A DNA stretch of 38,351 nt. Origin: a virus. Its lineage: Duplodnaviria > Caudoviricetes. The DNA is taken from the IMG/VR virus record IMGVR_UViG_3300018070_000009, positions 1 to 38,351 of that record. The stretch is one strand, 5' to 3'. The first letter of the stretch is position 1, and each line of letters opens with the position of its first letter. Positions 12,956-33,577 of this stretch are shown in pieces. The notes below the pieces were generated by a model. That model did not search any database. It was given only the letters and a program-made list of their open reading frames with translations, and was not told where the DNA came from. The position numbers and the translations under genes are program-made.

Positions 12956-13702
12956 ATGAATAAAAGAATTTATGGATGTTTGCCGGATAAGCATGATAAC
13001 CGGGACTTAAAGTATACAAGAAAAATAGTAGACTTACCTACCAAGGTAGATTTATCTTCCAACATGCCATCGGTATACGACCAGGAGAATATTGGATCGT
13101 GTGTGTTTAATGCTATTGCTGGTGGATTTGAATACCTTCTACCAATAGAAAAAAAAGAAAATTTTATGCCATCTAGGCTTTTTGCTTATTTTAATTATAG
13201 GGAAAAAGAAGGAAACATACAAGAAGATACAGGAGCTACTATTCGAGGAGGTTTTAAAATATGTGCAAAACTAGGTTTTTGCAAAGAAACCAATTGGCCT
13301 TATGATAAGAATTTTTTTACTACTAAACCATCTATAAAAGCTTATAATGAAGGTTTAAATCATCAAATTTTGAAATATGAAAGAATCCGCCATCTTTATG
13401 ATATGAAAGAATGTTTAGCCGAAGGTTATCCATTTGTAGCTGGAATTAAAATATATACATCTTTTGAATCCTCTACTGTAGCTAAAACTGGTATTGTGCC
13501 TATGCCTGACATTGAAAAAGAAGAATTATTTGGTGGCCATGCTGTACTAGTTGTAGGATATGATGATACAACTAGTATGGTTAAGGTTAGAAATTCATGG
13601 AGTGAAAAATGGGGAGATAAAGGGTATTTCTACTTACCGTATCATTTTATTACAGACATAAACTTAGCGTCTGATTTTTGGACTATTCGATTAACTGAAT
13701 AA
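12956..13702 (+). CDS. Papain-like cysteine peptidase (family C1A, xylellain-type)
   Basis: DQENIGSC, GGHAVLVVGY and RNSWSEKWGDKGY supply the Q/C/H/N catalytic residues. Confidence 0.95.
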   Translation: MNKRIYGCLPDKHDNRDLKYTRKIVDLPTKVDLSSNMPSVYDQENIGSCVFNAIAGGFEYLLPIEKKENFMPSRLFAYFNYREKEGNIQEDTGATIRGGFKICAKLGFCKETNWPYDKNFFTTKPSIKAYNEGLNHQILKYERIRHLYDMKECLAEGYPFVAGIKIYTSFESSTVAKTGIVPMPDIEKEELFGGHAVLVVGYDDTTSMVKVRNSWSEKWGDKGYFYLPYHFITDINLASDFWTIRLTE

Positions 13703-20069: not shown

Positions 20070-23000
20070 TTAATCCAAATTCCTAACTACTTTTTTTTCT
20101 TCTTTCTTAATATTTTTTAATTTAAGAATATATTGTCGATAAATTTTAGACACTGTAGAATTTAATCTTACCCTAGAATTGTTAGTAAAAGCACTGTTTA
20201 CTTGGTTTATATTAGACTCTATTTGATTTTTATATATTTCCTGTTCTGATTTTGACATCTTTTCAAAAACATCAATAACTAATTTTAAAGCAGATATTTC
20301 AGATGAATTTTTCTTAATAAAAACATACTCTTTTTCCATGTTTTTACCTTTAGCGTATTTCAAGGCTTCATTACTTCCAAATTCTTTTACAACATCATTA
20401 ATTTCTGATTCAATAGACTTTAATTTATTAACTGTATTTAAAAACTTAAATTCAGGTTCGGCTTCTCCTTTAATCTTATTAATAGTTTCCCTGGCTAATT
20501 TTGATGCAGCAATATTTACTTCATTAATCATTTTCTTTTTAATATCACGGTCTATTTTAAGACCATCTATCTCAGTTAACTTATTTCTTAAATCAGTCAA
20601 TTGTTTTGCGGTACCTGTAACTAAATATTTATGTTCATAAAATTTATAATCTTCATTTGATATATTCCTGGGTTTTATACTTTTTTTTTCAGCAAAAGAT
20701 AAAGTTTTATCTAATGAGTTCATTCTTTTAAATTCATCATAAAATTTCTGGACACTTAATCCACCAAATCCTACGGTTGATGACCTAGTAAATAATCTAC
20801 CAATAACAGGCCAATCAGCTTTTTCTTTATATTCTTTAGGAAAAGAATTAAGAATATCCGTAGCTAATCCACCAGTATACCCACTTAAAAGATGGTCAAT
20901 ATTTATAGGCGCAACATTTAATATATTACCAGCTTCTATGGCTAACTTACTTGTATGTGAAGTATATTGCTGTGGAGGTAATAATCCTTCTTGACTTTTA
21001 GATACTAATGGAGCATCCCTAAATATATCCCAATTAAAATATACTTCCATTGCTGGCTTGACTAACGCTGGCATTACAGGTGGTATCATAGCTCCAGCAG
21101 ATTCCTTAAAAGCATTTTTGTAGTATCCTGGATCTTTAGTATAAATTGAATTAGCTACACCCTCTGGAATAGCTGCAAATAAATATCCCCACTCGAAAGG
21201 TTTAGGTAAACGAATTATCTCATCTCCCATTTTAAAATTCCAAAAACCATATTTTTGCCAATCCGGCAACTCTTGGTACCACTTTTCGTCTTTATGTAAA
21301 TACCACAAAGCTAATGTAGGTGCTGTCATCATAGCTAATGCTCTAAACCCAGACCTTGTAGGATGTTCATATATTGTCCTACCCATACGGGTAATACCTT
21401 GTATAGCTGGATTAAAAAATGGAACTATTTGGTTAATAACTGCCGAATAAGTACCAGCTCGTTTAAAGTTAACAGTGACTTCATTCGCAGCATTAGAAGC
21501 TTCAATAGCTGCATCTTCTTGCAACTTTTTAAGTTCAACTAAATCACCGTCAATCCTAGCTTTTTCGAAACGTGGTTCATAACTTTCCATTACAGATTTA
21601 AATTCAGCTAACCTAGTTCCAGCTTCCGTGAATGAAAGTATTTTTCTTAAAGCTTCGATTGGATGCTTTACAATTCCTAATGCTTTTATTTGGACATTGT
21701 CGGCCAATATTTCTTCTACTGCATTTTTAACCATTTTTCTATCTAACCCAAGGGGTTGAGCCATTTCTCCACCAGCTCTTTTGAATTGTTTACTATATTC
21801 ACTCTTGCCAATCAATTCCTCCCCAATAGCAGTACCTACTTTCCATATTTTACTTATACCTGTATATTCATTTTGTAATGCAAATGTTTGAATGTCACGA
21901 ATAGGATTAGTTATTAAACTAAATCCAGCACGAATACCCGTAGCTCCAAGCCTAACTACCCTAGAAGCTGAACCGAATGTCATATCAATAAACCAAGGTA
22001 ATGAAACATTGTCTAAACCTTTCATAGCTTCATACAAATCCTTATCTAGTTCATAAAATTCTCTTTTACCTTCCCTATATATAGAAACTACATTATCCTT
22101 ACCGTAATAATCTCCTTGTGAAAAAACATTTATCAAAGCATCCTTATCAACTGTTGACATATCCACACCTAATGACTCAATTTGATTGGATATATCTTTT
22201 AACTCAACCGTAGTTTTTTTAAGTGGAGGTGGTATTTTTTCACCCCATTTACCAACACCTTCAAACCTATCTATTAAATTAACTAATGCCCTAGCTACCC
22301 TCACCTTATCCGCCATATTTATTATTTGTTCAGTTTGAGAAATCATAGATTCAAGAGGGCTTATAATTTCTCTTCCACTACCTTTAATTCTTTTTATAGG
22401 GTTAGACAAATCAACATATCCTTTTCCGGTTCCCCCTGTCAAACCTTTATCTACAATAGACCTTTTTAATGGTATGTAAAATGGGTTAGTATCCCTCATT
22501 AATTGAGCTGCATCTTTTGATAATCCACCAGCATCTACTAGATAATCAACAACATAAGACGACCATTCGGTGAAATCTTTAGCAAATTGTTCGTATTCAG
22601 GTTTAGCATTATTTTTTAATACATATTCTGCATCTAACCTAGTTATGCCAGGATTTATATCTCTATCTAATAATGATATAGCATGCTTTGAATAAGCATA
22701 AGCTATTGCATTTTTTATATCTTTAGTTACAGGAGCTACAACTTCTTTAAGACTTTTACCTATTTTGTTTAACCCAAAATTATAAGCTCCATCCATGATA
22801 AATTGCCTAGCTTTAGACGGGGCAGTTTTAGCTACGCTCATAGCTATTAAGTATGGATCTTCACTAGGTCTTATGACTACTTTATCAACTATTTTATTTA
22901 CAACATATTTTAAAGGATATAACCTATTTGAAAATTTAGATTTAAGTTTAATATCTAAAGTTGTTAACCTATCTTTTAAAGATAAATCTGATTTCATCCC

Positions 23001-26000
23001 ATCAAAATCTACTTGGCTTAATACCCTATTAAGTGATCCTTGTTCTCTCCATTGGGTAATAAGATTAGTACCTTCTTTTATTATTTTTGCTTCAACCGGG
23101 TTGTCTTTTAATATAGTATTTTCAAAATAATCATGAAATTTAGGAGCAAGAATTTTAGTGTTACCTACTGTCATATAATAACGCATAAATTCGGCAAAAC
23201 CTTCATCAACTCTTTGTTTAGCTTGATCGTAATCAATAGGCCTTAATTCATCTTTTAGATCATTAGGTAAGTTACCTGTTATTTTTAATTTTTTATCTAA
23301 ATAATGGGCTACTTCATGGGATATAGTAGATAAATCATATGCTTCTTTAGTTCTAATTACTTCTGGATCTACTTTAAATATACCCACAGCTTTTTCTCTT
23401 ATTTTTCCTATCCTAATGGGTATATTTAAATCTTTAGCTATTTTAGATACTATGGAAGATGCTTTTATTAATGGTTTACTAGGCTCCCTATTAACCATCA
23501 TGGGTAGCCTAGTTACAGATTTTTCTACTTTATCTTTTCCTATTTTAGATGGTTTAACTTTATGTATAATGCCATCATCCGCTTTTATAGTAAACCTACC
23601 ATCAGGTTCTTTTGCCATTACTTCTCCAATACGATTATTTCCAACCATATCTTTAAAGTTAACTGTTTGTCCAATTTTAGGTTCTTTTAGTTCTGTAAGT
23701 TTTTTACCGGCTACTTCTATAGGTTTTTCCGGTTCAACTTTTGGTTTTTCAACTTTAGGTATTACTTCACCTTTAGATGAAAGCATTCTATAAGAGTTAT
23801 CTGGCATCTTTTCAGCTTCTCCAGATTTAACTAAAGAATTCCACAAACCTTTTGCAGAATCAGATATTTTATCTGGCCTATCAGATTTAACAACTTTATC
23901 CTCTAATTGTGCCTGTTTATTTAATTCCCTATATATTTGCTTGCCATATCCTTTACCTTTTTCATTAACTAATACATATTTAATTTCCCAACCTTCTGGT
24001 TTTTCTTCAACATGTACTTCACCAAAATCTTTACCATTTTTAATTATATCCCTAGAAAATACATTTTTTTCACCTGTATATAATATTTTTTTCATAGCCT
24101 TTGGAGTTTCTGTTTTTTCTCCAAATTCTAACTTTCCTGTTTCCGTACCGGCAGGTTCAGGTTCTGCCATCCCCTCCGGTACAAAACTTGGAACTACCTC
24201 CCCGATTCCCTCTTTTTCTCTAGGGCTATTGCTATCGACTGCTTGTCGGCCTTCTTTTTCCCGAACTTCATCTGCGTCGAGGCGTGTTTTCCCCCCTTGT
24301 GAAGTTCCCGGATGTTCTTGCCTACCACCTTCTGTGACTTCCCCTTCTTTAGCGGCATGACTTAATTCCTCCCTTTTGCTTTCTTTCCCGATTTCGGTGC
24401 CTGTTTCGGTGCCCTTCCTTGTTGTCCCACTCGTGATGTCGGCTTCATCTGGCTGTATGTCCCGTTCTTCCCCGACACTCCTTTCTGTTGTTTCATAACC
24501 TTCTGTTTTTAATTGTTCAACATTTTCAATACCAGGCAATACTTGTTTTAATTCATCGTGTGCCTGGGTTTTTTCTTCACGATGTATATCTTTGTCAAAA
24601 TTATCATTAATACCTTTTAATGGTTGATCGTAAAACCTTTTTTTTATATCATATTTATGCTTTAATAAAAGTGATATTCTTTTATTTAAAATATTTTCTG
24701 TATTAGCTCTTTTTTGTAATTCTATTCCTGGTAATTCTTCTTTATATAATTCCTCTCGTTGTTTTATAAGTTCATTAACTTTATCATCAATATCTTTAGT
24801 TTTAAAAGTAGTTTTTATTTTAATATCATCCTCTATACTAGAAAGTTGTTTATCAAATTCATTTACCTTGTTGACATCTGGATATTCTTTAGCTAATTCA
24901 TTAGCAATATTCCTATTTAATAAATTAATCTTCTCTTTTACTAACCTAGGTTGATTAATAACATTTAATTGACTATTAATATTATCAATAGCATCTTTAT
25001 TAATCAAATTAAAAGACTCATCGACATTTTTACCTTGATTAGTTAAATGATCTTTGTCTAATATCAAATCTAAAGATTGAGCATAATCTTCAAAAGGAAT
25101 ATTTTTAGGTACTTTCCCTCTTGCAATATCAATAGCTTCCTTGGCTTTAGTTATATCTTTATGAATACCCATAGCCTTATCCATTAAGGCCCATGTAATA
25201 CCAGCATCTAATACACCTTCCTCGACATTCCTATTTGGATCTATAGTAGATTTATCTACTAAATTATTAGATATTTGAGTCGACACGCCAATAGCAAATC
25301 CTCTTAAAGCAGGAGATGTAGCGCTATATATAGATGAAGCTGCATTATCTAATACTGTATTATATGATCTTGTTAATAATTCCCTAGCCTTTTCAACACC
25401 TACTTTACCAATTAAATTTTTAGCCGTTTGCATAGTTTGGTTTCCACCTATTTCTCCTAATGCAACAAAATTTAATGATGTCATTAAAGCATTATACAAC
25501 TTAGCTGCTTGTGGTATTTTAAGATTATCTATTTCTTTATACTTCTGAACACCTTCACCAAATGCTTGGACACCAATTACCGCCCTGGATAACCCGGCGG
25601 CAGCGCCTTGGTGCATAGTTACTAGCATTGGTACATATTGAGCAATAGATAACCCAGCAGCGCCTATAGCTTCACTTGTTTTACCTTGTTTGATGTAATT
25701 AGTAATATCGGTATCATATATCTTAGTGTTTTTTTCCATTTCCTCCGATACCATTTCATAATATTGTTGGTCGTCAGATATTCCTGCTATTTTTTTATAT
25801 GGCAATATAAAATCAAGAGAATTGGTTAAATCCCTCATTACTCCCTTAGCTCCAATACCTATTTTATAATAAAGAGCTTTTAAATAGCTATTATTTTTCT
25901 TATCACCTTCGTATGGTACAAAACTATAAGCATCTTTTAAAATATCTTCATATCTTTTTTGTTCATTTTCATTTACCATATAACCTATAGTCCCATTAAT

Positions 26001-26519
26001 ATTAGTCTTATTAAGACCTACTTTAGTAGCTACATCATCAAGTTCATTTTCATATTCTTTATGAATATCCTCTACTTCTTTTTTAGATTTAGCACTCCTA
26101 ATTAATGGTTCATATTTATCATTAAGTTTATTTTGCCAAGATTTTAATGAATTAACTTTTTGAAATGGAGATTCAATAGGGTATCTTTTATCTACGTAAT
26201 CTTGTACTTTCCTAACATATTCATCATCCTTAGATGATTTATAATCATTAATAGGTTTAGGATCAAAATCATAAACATTACTAAGCTCTCTTTGAGGAAT
26301 TACCCTAGAAATAATATCACCAACTATGTTTTGTGATTTCGATATACTTTCCTGACCAACATATTCGGATGGTAAACTTGGAGTTATAGAAGGTTGAGAT
26401 ACTTCTTTTGGCTCTATAGTAGAAACTTTTTTTTTTGAAGGTTCATCTATTTCAAATCCAGCCGGTAATCCAGCATTGTCATCTATTTCAAAACCTATTG
26501 GTAAAGTATCGTTTGGCAT
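20070..26519 (-). CDS. Large polyvalent (ejected/cargo) protein: GNAT-like, KOW/SH3-like, zincin metallopeptidase and LPD38-like domains
   Basis: KGKGYGKQIY...AKGLWNSL (about 23800-24050); SHEVAH (23304-23318) with EGFAE; RLPKPFEWG near 21200; N-terminal LPxGFEID twice. Confidence 0.85.
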   Translation of the reverse strand: MPNDTLPIGFEIDDNAGLPAGFEIDEPSKKKVSTIEPKEVSQPSITPSLPSEYVGQESISKSQNIVGDIISRVIPQRELSNVYDFDPKPINDYKSSKDDEYVRKVQDYVDKRYPIESPFQKVNSLKSWQNKLNDKYEPLIRSAKSKKEVEDIHKEYENELDDVATKVGLNKTNINGTIGYMVNENEQKRYEDILKDAYSFVPYEGDKKNNSYLKALYYKIGIGAKGVMRDLTNSLDFILPYKKIAGISDDQQYYEMVSEEMEKNTKIYDTDITNYIKQGKTSEAIGAAGLSIAQYVPMLVTMHQGAAAGLSRAVIGVQAFGEGVQKYKEIDNLKIPQAAKLYNALMTSLNFVALGEIGGNQTMQTAKNLIGKVGVEKARELLTRSYNTVLDNAASSIYSATSPALRGFAIGVSTQISNNLVDKSTIDPNRNVEEGVLDAGITWALMDKAMGIHKDITKAKEAIDIARGKVPKNIPFEDYAQSLDLILDKDHLTNQGKNVDESFNLINKDAIDNINSQLNVINQPRLVKEKINLLNRNIANELAKEYPDVNKVNEFDKQLSSIEDDIKIKTTFKTKDIDDKVNELIKQREELYKEELPGIELQKRANTENILNKRISLLLKHKYDIKKRFYDQPLKGINDNFDKDIHREEKTQAHDELKQVLPGIENVEQLKTEGYETTERSVGEERDIQPDEADITSGTTRKGTETGTEIGKESKREELSHAAKEGEVTEGGRQEHPGTSQGGKTRLDADEVREKEGRQAVDSNSPREKEGIGEVVPSFVPEGMAEPEPAGTETGKLEFGEKTETPKAMKKILYTGEKNVFSRDIIKNGKDFGEVHVEEKPEGWEIKYVLVNEKGKGYGKQIYRELNKQAQLEDKVVKSDRPDKISDSAKGLWNSLVKSGEAEKMPDNSYRMLSSKGEVIPKVEKPKVEPEKPIEVAGKKLTELKEPKIGQTVNFKDMVGNNRIGEVMAKEPDGRFTIKADDGIIHKVKPSKIGKDKVEKSVTRLPMMVNREPSKPLIKASSIVSKIAKDLNIPIRIGKIREKAVGIFKVDPEVIRTKEAYDLSTISHEVAHYLDKKLKITGNLPNDLKDELRPIDYDQAKQRVDEGFAEFMRYYMTVGNTKILAPKFHDYFENTILKDNPVEAKIIKEGTNLITQWREQGSLNRVLSQVDFDGMKSDLSLKDRLTTLDIKLKSKFSNRLYPLKYVVNKIVDKVVIRPSEDPYLIAMSVAKTAPSKARQFIMDGAYNFGLNKIGKSLKEVVAPVTKDIKNAIAYAYSKHAISLLDRDINPGITRLDAEYVLKNNAKPEYEQFAKDFTEWSSYVVDYLVDAGGLSKDAAQLMRDTNPFYIPLKRSIVDKGLTGGTGKGYVDLSNPIKRIKGSGREIISPLESMISQTEQIINMADKVRVARALVNLIDRFEGVGKWGEKIPPPLKKTTVELKDISNQIESLGVDMSTVDKDALINVFSQGDYYGKDNVVSIYREGKREFYELDKDLYEAMKGLDNVSLPWFIDMTFGSASRVVRLGATGIRAGFSLITNPIRDIQTFALQNEYTGISKIWKVGTAIGEELIGKSEYSKQFKRAGGEMAQPLGLDRKMVKNAVEEILADNVQIKALGIVKHPIEALRKILSFTEAGTRLAEFKSVMESYEPRFEKARIDGDLVELKKLQEDAAIEASNAANEVTVNFKRAGTYSAVINQIVPFFNPAIQGITRMGRTIYEHPTRSGFRALAMMTAPTLALWYLHKDEKWYQELPDWQKYGFWNFKMGDEIIRLPKPFEWGYLFAAIPEGVANSIYTKDPGYYKNAFKESAGAMIPPVMPALVKPAMEVYFNWDIFRDAPLVSKSQEGLLPPQQYTSHTSKLAIEAGNILNVAPINIDHLLSGYTGGLATDILNSFPKEYKEKADWPVIGRLFTRSSTVGFGGLSVQKFYDEFKRMNSLDKTLSFAEKKSIKPRNISNEDYKFYEHKYLVTGTAKQLTDLRNKLTEIDGLKIDRDIKKKMINEVNIAASKLARETINKIKGEAEPEFKFLNTVNKLKSIESEINDVVKEFGSNEALKYAKGKNMEKEYVFIKKNSSEISALKLVIDVFEKMSKSEQEIYKNQIESNINQVNSAFTNNSRVRLNSTVSKIYRQYILKLKNIKKEEKKVVRNLD
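24194..24358 (-). CDS. Overprinted 54-aa basic protein of the MPLKKGKS type, nested in the +1 frame
   Basis: MPLKKGKSQKVVGKNIRELHKGGKHASTQMKFGKKKADKQSIAIALEKKRESGR*; GGGAGG about 9 nt upstream; coincides with a GC-rich island. Confidence 0.8.
   Translation of the reverse strand: MPLKKGKSQKVVGKNIRELHKGGKHASTQMKFGKKKADKQSIAIALEKKRESGR
24362..24496 (-). CDS. Overprinted 44-aa Lys/Gly/Gln-rich peptide, nested in the +1 frame
   Basis: MKQQKGVSGKNGTYSQMKPTSRVGQQGRAPKQAPKSGKKAKGRN*; ATG sits at the edge of the GC-rich island; stop is 3 nt before the next nested ATG. Confidence 0.6.
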   Translation of the reverse strand: MKQQKGVSGKNGTYSQMKPTSRVGQQGRAPKQAPKSGKKAKGRN

Positions 26520-28722: not shown

Positions 28723-31700
28723 TTAATACTTATTACTTGCATCATATCCAACCTCGCACTCTAATATCCATACCTCAACATCTTCCAAATTTTCAATTTG
28801 ATGTTTTAAATAATTACCTCTTAATGTATCTCCATTAAATAAATCTAAAACCGATTCTGCGGAAGATGTAGTTAACATATTATTTAAATAGTCAGAATAA
28901 AATTGACCTTCTTTTAGTTCAAACCTAGTAGCTGGTATCTTAGATTTCATTCCCCTAGTATAAGAAGCATCTGCTTCTATCAATAATATAGGTACATCCC
29001 ATTTCTTATTAGACTTAATACCTAGCATTCTAAATATTTTCTTAGCTAATGGTAGTGCATTAGAATACCAATTTATTTGTTGTTTATATTTTACTCCATA
29101 AAAAGTACATCTATTTACATTATTTGAATTATGGCTATATCCTAGCCCATTTTTAAAAGAAAGTAATTCTGTCCCTACATAAGCATAATGTTCGGGGATA
29201 AACGAAAAATAACTAATCCATCTTGGCTTAGACCCTTCCATTTCAGAGTCATAAAATCCTAATGTTTCTGAATTGCCAGATATAATAAAAGTTATAAGGT
29301 ACATTTTATTTTCTTCATCAAAAGAACCTATTATATCTACATTACCTATCCCAACTCCTAATATTTCTTTAAATTTATTTTTAAAATAAGTCCTCATTCC
29401 ATATTCAGAAATAGGATATTGTCCGTTTGGACTCGATCTTATAATTTCACCAGTATATATATCCGGGTAGTATATATTCCTATTATGTGAAACTACTGCT
29501 TTTGGAAATATACAACCCCTATTTTCATCAGCACTATTAGCTGTACCTAAAACACTTGTAGATGAAATTATATTAGATGATCCATCAGAATTTTTCATTT
29601 CAGTTCTACCGACATATATAGAAGTTTCTTTTTTATCTTGCAAAACTTTAAGCACATTTCCAACTTCTTTTAAAGAATTAATACCACCAAATTTCTCTTT
29701 TAATTCATTTAATATATCTTCTGATTTAAATTTATTCAGCCTATTAATCTTAGTATCTTGTATTAAAGCACCCCCATATCTTAAAGATGATGTTAAGTTA
29801 ATTTCTCCAGCATCTTGATCATAATAATTTGGCGATTTAACTCCACAATAATTAGAAGTATAAAAATCAGTATAACTACCATCTACGCAAATAAACATAC
29901 GTTTTGCAAATCTCTGCCTATAATAACAGTCTCCAAAATTAGAACTTAATTTAGCTGGTACTGTTGATGGTGTTATTGGGTTTTGATTCTGGCTATCTCC
30001 TATATGATAATTATTACTTGTCCCTGGATTACCAATAGCATGTATGGTATCGTGGAAATAAAAAACCTTTTCAGTAATCTTTTTATTACGATATATTTCA
30101 ATAGTAAAAGAAATATAAGTAGGTGCTAAATAAGTATATAAATATTCATTATTTTTAATATCAATAACAATAAAAGAACTAGATGTATCATATATTTTAT
30201 TACCATTAATATCAAGAATATAATCAATATTAGTACTATAATCCTTCATGTAACTTATATCATCTTTAGGGTATTCTTGTCCAATAATTCTAAATACAGA
30301 AGTACCATCTTTAGTAACAGAACTAGTATAAGCTAACATGATCATTAACATATCTCCATTTTCCCATTCATATGATGGTAATGTACTATTTTTAACTAAT
30401 TCTCTCGATTTGTTTAATATTTTTTGTAACCTAATTCTCAAATACCCATCAGTACCAAAAAAATAATCCTGGTCTAAAACAATTTTTAATTGTAAAAAGA
30501 AATCAACTTTATTTCTTTTTGAAAATGCCAAACAATAATAATATGCCCAAGTAGGTGGTTTATTTTTTATCCATATTTCAAAATAAGATGGAAATGATGT
30601 TTCTCCTCCAAAAGGAGTATTTATTACTGATGGAAACCTATTAACAGTCGAATATCTTAAATCTTTATCAAAATACACTATGCTACCTAAATATGAATCT
30701 ATATTCTTTAAAGTTTTAACACTAGGTAAAGGAAGGTAACTATGAAGGTCTATACTTAAAATATTACAAGTATTATTTCCATTATAATCGGATGAATTTT
30801 CGAAATATGGTATCCTCATCATCCTTATGCAATTAGTATGTCCACTATCTGTCCAAGGATAATCAAAATGATATGTCGGGTTATAAAAACCTCCATATTT
30901 CCAACAATCATCTGCAAATATATTACCTAGTTGAGCAAAAAAATAAGCCATAATATTTTGCCTAGTAGTAGTGGATGTTGCTGGATATATTAAATATATA
31001 TCATCATTAGTAGTAGCTAGGTCAACAGATATATTTACATCATTATCTATAAACTTATAGGCTTCTGCTATATTTGTTATTTCAGCAGATTTAACCAATC
31101 TTAATGGGAGATGTAATATTACACAACTTATCCCGTTTGATCCAAATGTAATAGAATCTATAGTGAAATACCAATAATAACTATCCATACGAGAATATAC
31201 AGTTGCATTTTGCTGATCCCAAGTAAAACTTTTATTTCGTACATAACTATTAACATTTACAATTGTAGGATCAAATTCTTCTGTAATATTCCCAAGCGCT
31301 ATCTTATCTTTTTCTATTATCTCTAATGAAGTAGCTAATTTAGGGATAAAATCATAAGGTCTATTTATATCATCTTGGTCTATTTCTTCTTTTAACTTAG
31401 AATTATCAAAAGTATACGTAGTAACACCGGTCGTTTCTATAGTATCATATAAATACCAATTAGTATTTTCATTTTCTCTTACAAACAACTCGGTCCTTAA
31501 AATATCTTTAGTAGTAGGAATTGTGAAAGTTAACACTATTTGATCATAAGACGCATATAACCCATAACCATTAGATAAAAAAGTGTAATCACACCAAAAC
31601 ATTTCTGAAAATTGACTTAATACACTTTTTTGGTAATCTACATAAGTATATCTAAGAGCAAATTGAAATGATTTACCTGTTAATAAGTCGGTTGAATTAT

Positions 31701-32262
31701 TTACACCTGTTAATGTTATAACTCCATCATATGGTTTTTTGTATAACCTACACATATCTACAGTTAATGTAGAATATTTATAAGTAGTACTTATGCTATT
31801 AGTATAATTGTATGCCCTAATGTAATTAATTTCCATTACTGGTTGATTACCATCAGTCCAAGTCAAAAAATCACCTACTATGGCAGCATTTATTACAGAT
31901 GTATATGTAAATAATAATCCTATATTACCAAATATTAATTTATTACTACCATCAGTTATGTCATAATAAAAAATACCTGAATACCTACTTCCATCACTAG
32001 AATTAGATACCATATAAATAATCCTATTCCGGGCTTCATCTATACATGATCCTACTACTTTTATAGTATAACTTATATTAAATAATGAATTTAATAATGA
32101 TTGATCCGTTACCAATTCATTACCTTTTATATTTACAGCTACACCAAACCTACCATCTGATTGAATAATAGTATTTAATGTATAATCTGATCCTTTATTT
32201 ATTTTAGGATCAGAATCTATATCTAAATAAGTTTCACCAAGTATTTTTATATCTTTTTCCAT
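28723..32262 (-). CDS. Tail muzzle / stabilisation protein (crAss-like)
   Basis: 1179 aa; NIKGN, FQFALRYTYVD..KSVLS, WISYFSFIPE, KEGQFY and GDTLRGNY motifs; follows the ring genes. Confidence 0.8.
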   Translation of the reverse strand: MEKDIKILGETYLDIDSDPKINKGSDYTLNTIIQSDGRFGVAVNIKGNELVTDQSLLNSLFNISYTIKVVGSCIDEARNRIIYMVSNSSDGSRYSGIFYYDITDGSNKLIFGNIGLLFTYTSVINAAIVGDFLTWTDGNQPVMEINYIRAYNYTNSISTTYKYSTLTVDMCRLYKKPYDGVITLTGVNNSTDLLTGKSFQFALRYTYVDYQKSVLSQFSEMFWCDYTFLSNGYGLYASYDQIVLTFTIPTTKDILRTELFVRENENTNWYLYDTIETTGVTTYTFDNSKLKEEIDQDDINRPYDFIPKLATSLEIIEKDKIALGNITEEFDPTIVNVNSYVRNKSFTWDQQNATVYSRMDSYYWYFTIDSITFGSNGISCVILHLPLRLVKSAEITNIAEAYKFIDNDVNISVDLATTNDDIYLIYPATSTTTRQNIMAYFFAQLGNIFADDCWKYGGFYNPTYHFDYPWTDSGHTNCIRMMRIPYFENSSDYNGNNTCNILSIDLHSYLPLPSVKTLKNIDSYLGSIVYFDKDLRYSTVNRFPSVINTPFGGETSFPSYFEIWIKNKPPTWAYYYCLAFSKRNKVDFFLQLKIVLDQDYFFGTDGYLRIRLQKILNKSRELVKNSTLPSYEWENGDMLMIMLAYTSSVTKDGTSVFRIIGQEYPKDDISYMKDYSTNIDYILDINGNKIYDTSSSFIVIDIKNNEYLYTYLAPTYISFTIEIYRNKKITEKVFYFHDTIHAIGNPGTSNNYHIGDSQNQNPITPSTVPAKLSSNFGDCYYRQRFAKRMFICVDGSYTDFYTSNYCGVKSPNYYDQDAGEINLTSSLRYGGALIQDTKINRLNKFKSEDILNELKEKFGGINSLKEVGNVLKVLQDKKETSIYVGRTEMKNSDGSSNIISSTSVLGTANSADENRGCIFPKAVVSHNRNIYYPDIYTGEIIRSSPNGQYPISEYGMRTYFKNKFKEILGVGIGNVDIIGSFDEENKMYLITFIISGNSETLGFYDSEMEGSKPRWISYFSFIPEHYAYVGTELLSFKNGLGYSHNSNNVNRCTFYGVKYKQQINWYSNALPLAKKIFRMLGIKSNKKWDVPILLIEADASYTRGMKSKIPATRFELKEGQFYSDYLNNMLTTSSAESVLDLFNGDTLRGNYLKHQIENLEDVEVWILECEVGYDASNKY

Positions 32263-32972: not shown

Positions 32973-33577
32973 TATGCTTTTTCATTTTGATTATTTAACT
33001 TATCAACAGGAATTAAATTATACATTTGACGTATAATATTTATTACTTCCAAATCTTGACCACTAGGAATAGGTACATCTTCACTTAAATCCCATTCTGT
33101 AAAATCAATCACCAAATCCATTTTTACAGCCGTAATAATCGGATCAAAATTGTAATAAGTAATAATACTACCACTAAGAGAATATCCTATTACATCATCA
33201 ATACTATCAAATTCTCCACCATATAATAATTCTCTTTCATTCATTTGAATTGGAGCAAAAGCCACATCACGACCAAGCATGTCATTAATATTCCAAATAC
33301 CATCTCCACATATTGGATATTGAATAACTTTTGCTGGAAGATTAGAATAATAAACTTGAGTAGCGGAATCATAATTTACAGCTATATTAGTATATTGTTT
33401 AGAATATCTATCTAAATTAGATGGGTCTTTTTTAAATGTTTGAAAAAATATAGTATTTAAAGCGGCAGATATATCTAATTCAATACGTCTCGGATCAGCT
33501 AAATGTATCCTGTCAACCGTTTCTTTTCCTCCAAAAATATTTAATCTTATTAATTCTATATATTTAGATTTTATCAT
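32972..33577 (-). CDS. Tail ring/adaptor protein
   Basis: YSNLP...VPIP...DKLNN pattern; coupled within the ring cluster. Confidence 0.6.
   Translation of the reverse strand: MIKSKYIELIRLNIFGGKETVDRIHLADPRRIELDISAALNTIFFQTFKKDPSNLDRYSKQYTNIAVNYDSATQVYYSNLPAKVIQYPICGDGIWNINDMLGRDVAFAPIQMNERELLYGGEFDSIDDVIGYSLSGSIITYYNFDPIITAVKMDLVIDFTEWDLSEDVPIPSGQDLEVINIIRQMYNLIPVDKLNNQNEKA

Follow-up and report, generated by a model that had tools for sequence, protein, structure and literature searches.

In a 38-kb phage contig (IMGVR_UViG_3300018070_000009; 38,351 nucleotides, analyzed at full length and called the window below), the gene for a giant late protein contains, one base off its own register, two small basic genes in tandem, one of which belongs to a recurrent phage protein family. 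Both frames are very probably translated, with the nested genes under selection and the host frame read through as a linker. The arrangement is best described as the out-of-frame capture of an old gene and not as a de novo overprint.

The host gene and its nested genes

The plus strand of the window carries a replication block, the minus strand a late block. The replication block ends with a gene for a papain-family cysteine protease (12956–13702, plus strand; Peptidase_C1, E = 5e-14). A 1179-aa virion protein (28723–32262, minus strand) weakly resembles the C-terminal domain of the crassvirus muzzle (E = 5e-5, short of the cut-off), and this resemblance, in combination with the starts without Shine-Dalgarno (SD) sequence described below, hints at a Bacteroidota podophage.

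The host gene (20070–26519, minus strand) encodes a protein of 2149 aa and matches phrog_9854 (E = 9e-76). The only Pfam domain passing in this protein is an LPD38 domain near the C-terminus (20823–21284, minus strand; host residues 1746–1899; E = 7e-36). With this domain and a setting among late virion genes (the upstream neighbor or neighbors match virion structural PHROGs), the protein shows these two features of polyvalent proteins and is likely an ejected polyvalent cargo protein. Near residues 813–905 lies a stretch that may be GNAT-like.

Gene B (24194–24358, minus strand) occupies host codons 721–775. Re-translation returned exactly the 54-aa peptide, from ATG 24358 to TAG 24194, that the first-pass annotation had proposed, and its placement in the +1 frame of ORF 26519–20070 was confirmed. 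The protein is strongly basic (17 K/R versus 4 D/E) and has neither a cysteine nor a hydrophobic signal. Overlooked in that annotation was gene A (24362–24496, minus strand), which encodes a basic peptide of 44 aa (12 K/R, no D/E) in the same frame as B and whose stop codon sits 3 nt before the B ATG. An assembly artefact was rejected, since single contigs from three of four sequencing runs (X10, X12, and X18; X14 does not cover the region) span B without any difference; among the four runs compared, of 24 listed, no variant was found inside the nested ORFs.

An open frame of this size is not in itself remarkable. When the host gene was recoded with genome codon usage, some +1 ATG ORF of at least 54 aa arose in 175 of 500 recodings, and an intact +1 ORF at the very place of B in 15 of 500. 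As length alone is thus not significant, the case rests on homology and selection, on which a chance ORF was rejected.

Across A and B the host frame encodes a linker (24192–24497, minus strand; codons 675–776) that is acidic, polar, Gly-rich and almost devoid of aromatics, with F, W, Y, or C at 1 of 102 positions versus 8% elsewhere in the host protein. Its composition makes it likely disordered. A phmmer search of the linker against long proteins found only the host protein itself. The G/C-rich host wobble positions that had been claimed inside B were also seen (GC3 0.35 inside versus 0.16 outside); the first positions differ more, with a GC fraction of 0.75 inside versus 0.43 and a T fraction of 0.02 versus 0.19.

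Gene B belongs to a widespread phage family

The recurrent type of small phage protein to which B had been assigned is real: the phrog_2423 profile matches residues 1–50 of B, covering the conserved core of the family (E = 1e-8). A search with the 54-aa peptide yielded 95 homologs among 163 candidates (best E = 5.8e-16, up to 75% identity), most of them free-standing, and B has all 8 invariant and all 12 near-invariant columns of a 92-row family alignment. Pfam gave no match of B to DUF6496 (PF20106) at E 0.01, whereas three of four close homologs tested pass its gathering cut-off of 24 bits (24.7–30.8 bits); B is therefore DUF6496-related and not a formal member. In the nearest atlas cluster (score 0.96), 17% of the members carry DUF6496. 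The AlphaFold2 model of B consists of three helices (pLDDT 91.5). No fold match at E ≤ 0.001 was found in the PDB and a viral library, where the nearest entries were uncharacterized phage proteins, and no solved structure was matched by sequence (best E = 0.04).

Three scans identified 238 family loci, 236 with a match at the start of the family. Seventeen of the 236 lie in a stop-free same-strand frame of at least 300 codons, all in the register of the window; these are the window itself, one duplicate, 14 ORFs of 776–3499 codons, and one contig-cut ORF. The other same-strand frame was open over at least 300 codons at one locus, and nine further loci have only antisense open frames of that length. 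Not counted as nested were L174, a 3' tail of a glycosyltransferase ORF in the other frame, and L120, L249, and L250, where the −1 frame is merely a short chance extension of the downstream gene. L249 (5071) and L250 (5540) are family copies in contigs of metagenome-assembled genomes labeled Bifidobacterium.

At the remaining loci the family gene stands alone or forms the N-terminal part of a longer protein. Fusions to proteins of 184–1683 aa include L134:4074–9122, L194:6080–10939, L003, L004, L090, L140, and L221, and in fused copies a GG motif frequently comes next (22 loci, counting duplicates); the N-terminal domain with its GG might serve as a cleavable leader that targets the capsid. 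The hosts of the nested copies are diverse; among 15 scanned, three had Pfam matches (GNAT in one; SLT, InPase, LPD1, and helicase in another; InPase in the third).

A profile of the imprint that the family leaves in the host frame matched 158 clusters among 1.84 billion representatives. Among the 150 matches listed, 111 are proteins of at least 1000 aa, known from their protein sequence alone, and 101 of these 111 contain a dipeptide that would permit a nested ATG or GTG start, a feature that the profile itself rewards. With the imprint masked, the giant proteins and the host protein of the window form 32 groups at 150 bits and 10 groups at 60 bits.

Selection acts on the nested frame

A search with the C-terminal part of the host protein alone identified loci L239 and L240 (73–74%) and L241 (40%), to which a second host query added L246 and L247. 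Genes A and B are intact and in the same frame in L239 and L240; the more distant L241, L246, and L247 lack B. The A homologs are 55–57% identical and located at the matching place. No free-standing A homolog was found among the free proteins, PHROGs, and Pfam, and a viral scan with A returned L239 and L240 only. Between A and B, L239 (7935–8069) and L240, at the same place, carry a third nested basic ORF of 44 aa, gene C, which starts with ATG in L239 and GTG in L240 and is absent from the window. Its presence or absence corresponds to a 52-codon difference that preserves the host frame.

L239 and L240 were compared with each other, which leaves out the lineage of the window. Inside the three nested ORFs, 5 of 147 codons differ at the host third position (3%; A 2/46, C 1/45, B 2/56), versus 824 of 1984 outside (42%), a contrast with p = 1e-25 overall, 2e-10 for B alone, and 2e-8 for A alone. 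Outside the cluster, each bin of at least 100 codons shows 34–50% differences. Host first positions, which are the wobble positions of the nested genes, behave the opposite way: 40 of 147 differ inside (A 14, C 17, B 9) versus 199 of 1984 outside. The check on synonymous sites that had been proposed for homologs of the host gene thus came out in favor of the nested genes, and we conclude from the third-position contrast that selection acts on the +1 frame.

Comparisons that include the lineage of the window agree. Between the window and L239, B shows 29.5 nested-silent changes versus 12 expected and 2 host-silent changes versus 13.9 expected; the signal over A is weaker (20 nested-silent changes versus 10.8 expected). 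Across nested copies, protein identity is 0.63 in the nested frame versus 0.35 in the host frame, and start (ATG or GTG) and stop codons are kept in all 16 distinct nested copies. The nested frame is thus under purifying selection, as dual coding demands.

Constraint on the host frame

The host frame across the overlap bears its own marks. Third positions of the nested genes coincide with host first positions, and across 15 nested copies a synonymous T that would create no host stop occurs at 14 of 280 such positions versus 93.5 expected; the corresponding count in 73 free copies is 373 of 1503 versus 422 expected. Because T is avoided even where no stop would arise, the host frame is under selection at the amino-acid level. 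Third-position G+C follows that of the locus with a slope of 0.93 in free copies and 0.22 in nested ones. The part of the host gene N-terminal to the cluster evolves as host-frame coding sequence, and no stop occurs before 20070. Read-through of the overlap is thus indicated at the sequence level by the open frame, the avoidance of T, and the frame-keeping indel at gene C.

Chance alone leaves the −1 frame open in 22 of 98 free family copies, which calls for caution and also makes capture of such a gene into a host frame feasible.

Initiation signals

An SD-like GGGAGG had been noted before the B start. It is present (24368–24373, minus strand) in the last codons of gene A, 9 nt before the B ATG; as evidence for a start it is weak, because 29 of 32 ordinary genes in the window lack an SD sequence and GGAGG is not kept before B in L239 or L240. 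The three ordinary genes that have one (at 33577, 34323, and 17014, minus strand) all belong to the late block. An SD sequence of at least 5 nt precedes 10 of 16 nested copies versus 29 of 98 free copies. The base at −3 of the B start is G, and 24 of 32 window genes have A at this position. SD-poor starts with A at −3 resemble the pattern of Bacteroidota, from which we infer a host in this phylum.

An in-frame stop immediately precedes B and another lies four codons before the ATG of A, so that neither is likely to be a frameshift product. The junction of stop, 3 nt, and ATG between nested genes is kept in L239 and L240, which suggests translational coupling. Both frames are likely read from one late mRNA, with B starting at its own ATG, probably coupled to the stop of A 3 nt upstream. 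A promoter scan returned 5 sites versus 5.3 expected.

Origin of the overlap and alternative explanations

The first-pass annotation had left open whether this was true dual coding or a captured gene read in a new frame as linker. Both hold, with selection on both frames and a family that is mostly free. Its term "overprinted" does not apply in the strict sense, as the direction is wrong: the nested frame, with its 95 mostly free-standing homologs, is the older one, and because the family is old the host linker is taken as the new frame. A cluster of pre-existing small genes would have been swallowed out of frame, either through read-through fusion of two flanking genes or through recombination into a linker. 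Read in −1, Lys-rich genes are polar, and after a purge of codons ending in T they would give a stop-free acidic linker. Identity between the window and L239 is at most 27% upstream of the cluster and 47–85% from codon 801 to 2000; this jump and a conserved GGAGGG-ATG after B fit a read-through fusion across the small-gene cluster. No repeats were found flanking the cluster. The GGAGGGG in question (24168–24178, minus strand) is directly followed by an in-frame host ATG at 24170, where the identity to relatives jumps, and is kept in L239 and L240. This ATG may be a relic or an internal start of the C-terminal half of the host protein, with a spacing too short for a canonical SD sequence, and an additional internal start in the host gene is possible.

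The same jump in identity and the same conserved motif could instead be read as two genes flanking small genes that are open by chance in the host frame, or as a C-terminal half that starts at ATG 24170, so that the host frame would not be read through at all. We consider this very improbable: no stop ends the N-terminal part, under genome codon usage the −1 frame of B would be open with p ~ 5e-5, the avoidance of non-stop T shows that amino acids of the host frame are under selection, and the 52-codon gain or loss of gene C preserves that frame. An equally far-fetched idea is that B, once captured out of frame, has lost its expression and persists solely as part of the linker DNA. The start context of B is indeed atypical for the genome, and 10 of the 111 giant imprint proteins lack the start-compatible dipeptide, although at least two of these look like false matches. 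The substitution pattern strongly disfavors such a fossil, as changes between relatives sit on the nested wobble and avoid the host wobble, starts and stops are all retained, and identity is higher in the nested than in the host frame.

Birth of B de novo in the +1 frame of a cargo gene, with the free copies as its descendants, is the classical course of overprinting. A single origin of the nested copies was not rejected in an AU test (p = 0.054; all 18 nested and 33 of 98 free rows), and the family tree (46 columns, 116 rows), with 13 changes between free and nested labels, is too weak to tell one capture from several. This course is nonetheless highly unlikely, since nested copies are greatly outnumbered by free and fused ones, which are known from many kinds of cultured phages, since relatedness among the host proteins is patchy beyond the imprint, and since the host frame has no conserved function at the nested site. 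Capture of an existing gene out of frame remains our preferred reading.

Other small basic ORFs are found in comparable positions. At L246:9445–9579, a 2265-aa gene that has a domain in common with the host gene of the window contains, in its +1 frame, a 44-aa basic ORF of another kind. A homolog of this ORF is free-standing and unannotated in Aeromonas phage 1233 (51% over 43 aa, E = 1e-3), which suggests that other small-gene families can also be taken in out of frame. L241:6696–6833 is a candidate 45-aa basic nested ORF with AGGAG upstream, over which host GC3 drops from 0.71 to 0.43; no homolog of it was found. Lys-rich +1 ORFs lie directly upstream of the nested family gene at L154:7866–7994, L074:7818–7952, and L092:7848–7946, and the one in L154 has only a short motif in common with gene A.

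We lean, somewhat, toward a general reading in which the linkers of giant phage cargo proteins serve as a parking place for hidden +1 mini-operons, where unrelated families of small basic head genes are repeatedly captured, gained, and lost, as Lys-rich codons read in −1 give an acidic disordered linker. If this is true, more than 100 lineages of giant proteins hide a second layer of unannotated virion genes, expressed together with the cargo whose packing or ejection they assist.

A possible role in the virion

PB1 ORF19 matches phrog_2423 (E = 7e-29; hhalign to family alignment A1, 95%) and is located after minor head genes. S1_022 of phage SCUT-S1 is nearly identical to it; the two represent a short Pbunavirus subtype that lacks the middle helix and is 37% identical in the aligned part. 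Published mass spectrometry of DNA-emptied SCUT-S1 particles (virion ghosts) identified S1_022, a distant member of the family, by 7 peptides at 77% coverage (PMC6521218, Table 1). In phage Pa193, gp21 (207 nt, 7.4 kDa), which is equated with the PB1 ORF19 family by synteny only, appears in the LC-MS list of virion proteins with a Mascot score of 288 (PMC11456595). The proteomics of TC6 resolved only 18–190 kDa and is uninformative on the family (PMC6209634), and no link to the family was found in the accessible part of the SU10 paper (PMC4281155). In phage AB1 the head maturation protease begins with the family domain, and a head, terminase, portal, or virion gene is among the large neighbors of 14 of 27 free loci, a count from hand-picked neighbors that is biased.

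By analogy with these relatives, we regard it as fairly likely that B is in the virion. DNA binding, judged from charge alone, is conceivable, though we would not quite favor it. B is probably an internal head protein whose basic surface contacts DNA or the acidic inside of the capsid. The products of B and A would be components packed in the phage head, and the host frame would supply a linker of the ejected cargo protein.

B and A could instead be translated to act in the infected cell, as a nucleic-acid-binding regulator or translation modulator. Both are very basic, some free copies adjoin replication or lysis genes (L097, L120, L103, L157, and TC6), and the chromosomal copies L249 and L250 lie upstream of a gene that is presumably aminotransferase-like and apparently housekeeping. 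We think such a role less likely in view of the mass spectrometry of S1_022 and the syntenic Pa193 gp21, the fusion to a head protease, and the head or packaging genes among the picked neighbors of free loci. With a place in the head as the preferred reading, the family would comprise widespread, unstudied basic virion proteins with members in cultured Pbunaviruses.

Comparison with known systems

Our literature search, which covered few subscription papers, returned no description of the nested arrangement or of the family, and none under DUF6496. With the known phrog_2423/DUF6496 proteins (PB1 ORF19 and S1_022), B shares the N-terminal MPL..G.S....NI.E and the C-terminal KQA(V/I)AIAL helix. 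B differs from them as a long subtype with an extra middle helix of about 12 residues, and in lying out of frame inside another gene, whereas they stand alone or form N-terminal fusions. The free and embedded states of one family are thereby open to comparison.

The host protein resembles the LPD38 polyvalent proteins, which are giant multidomain proteins of the late region, predicted to be packaged and injected (Iyer et al., 2017; PMC5512222); that of the window is likewise a giant late-region LPD38 protein. The word "overlap" does not occur in the main text of that paper. The nested genes suggest that an apparently low-complexity linker in a cargo protein can be the imprint of another gene, which may mislead homology searches between otherwise unrelated giant proteins, and that small structural genes within giant ORFs are systematically overlooked when uncultured phages are annotated.

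Embedded spanins offer a close architectural parallel, in which a larger phage gene holds a complete small one in its +1 frame. Lambda Rz1 lies in the +1 frame of Rz, and such genes are often missed by annotation (PMC6139136). The same paper proposes an origin from separate genes, including loss of a stop codon, and reports that embedded and other architectures were not found together in any one family. The partners of a spanin pair form one lysis complex and their genes are short, whereas A and B have no known tie to the host protein and are nested, in a tandem of two or three genes, in the linker of a protein of more than 2000 aa. Unlike the spanins, the family of B exists both free and embedded. 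An embedded spanin pair was rejected as an identity for the present genes, as B has no cysteine or hydrophobic signal and the host is an LPD38 protein.

The arrangement also shares with overprinted viral genes a same-strand +1 overlap in which one frame is polar and likely disordered (reviewed in PMC8227390). There the de novo protein usually has no homologs; here it is the nested frame that has homologs, and the host linker would be the de novo frame. The window may therefore offer a clean natural case of an overlap that arose through capture of a finished gene and not through birth of a new one.
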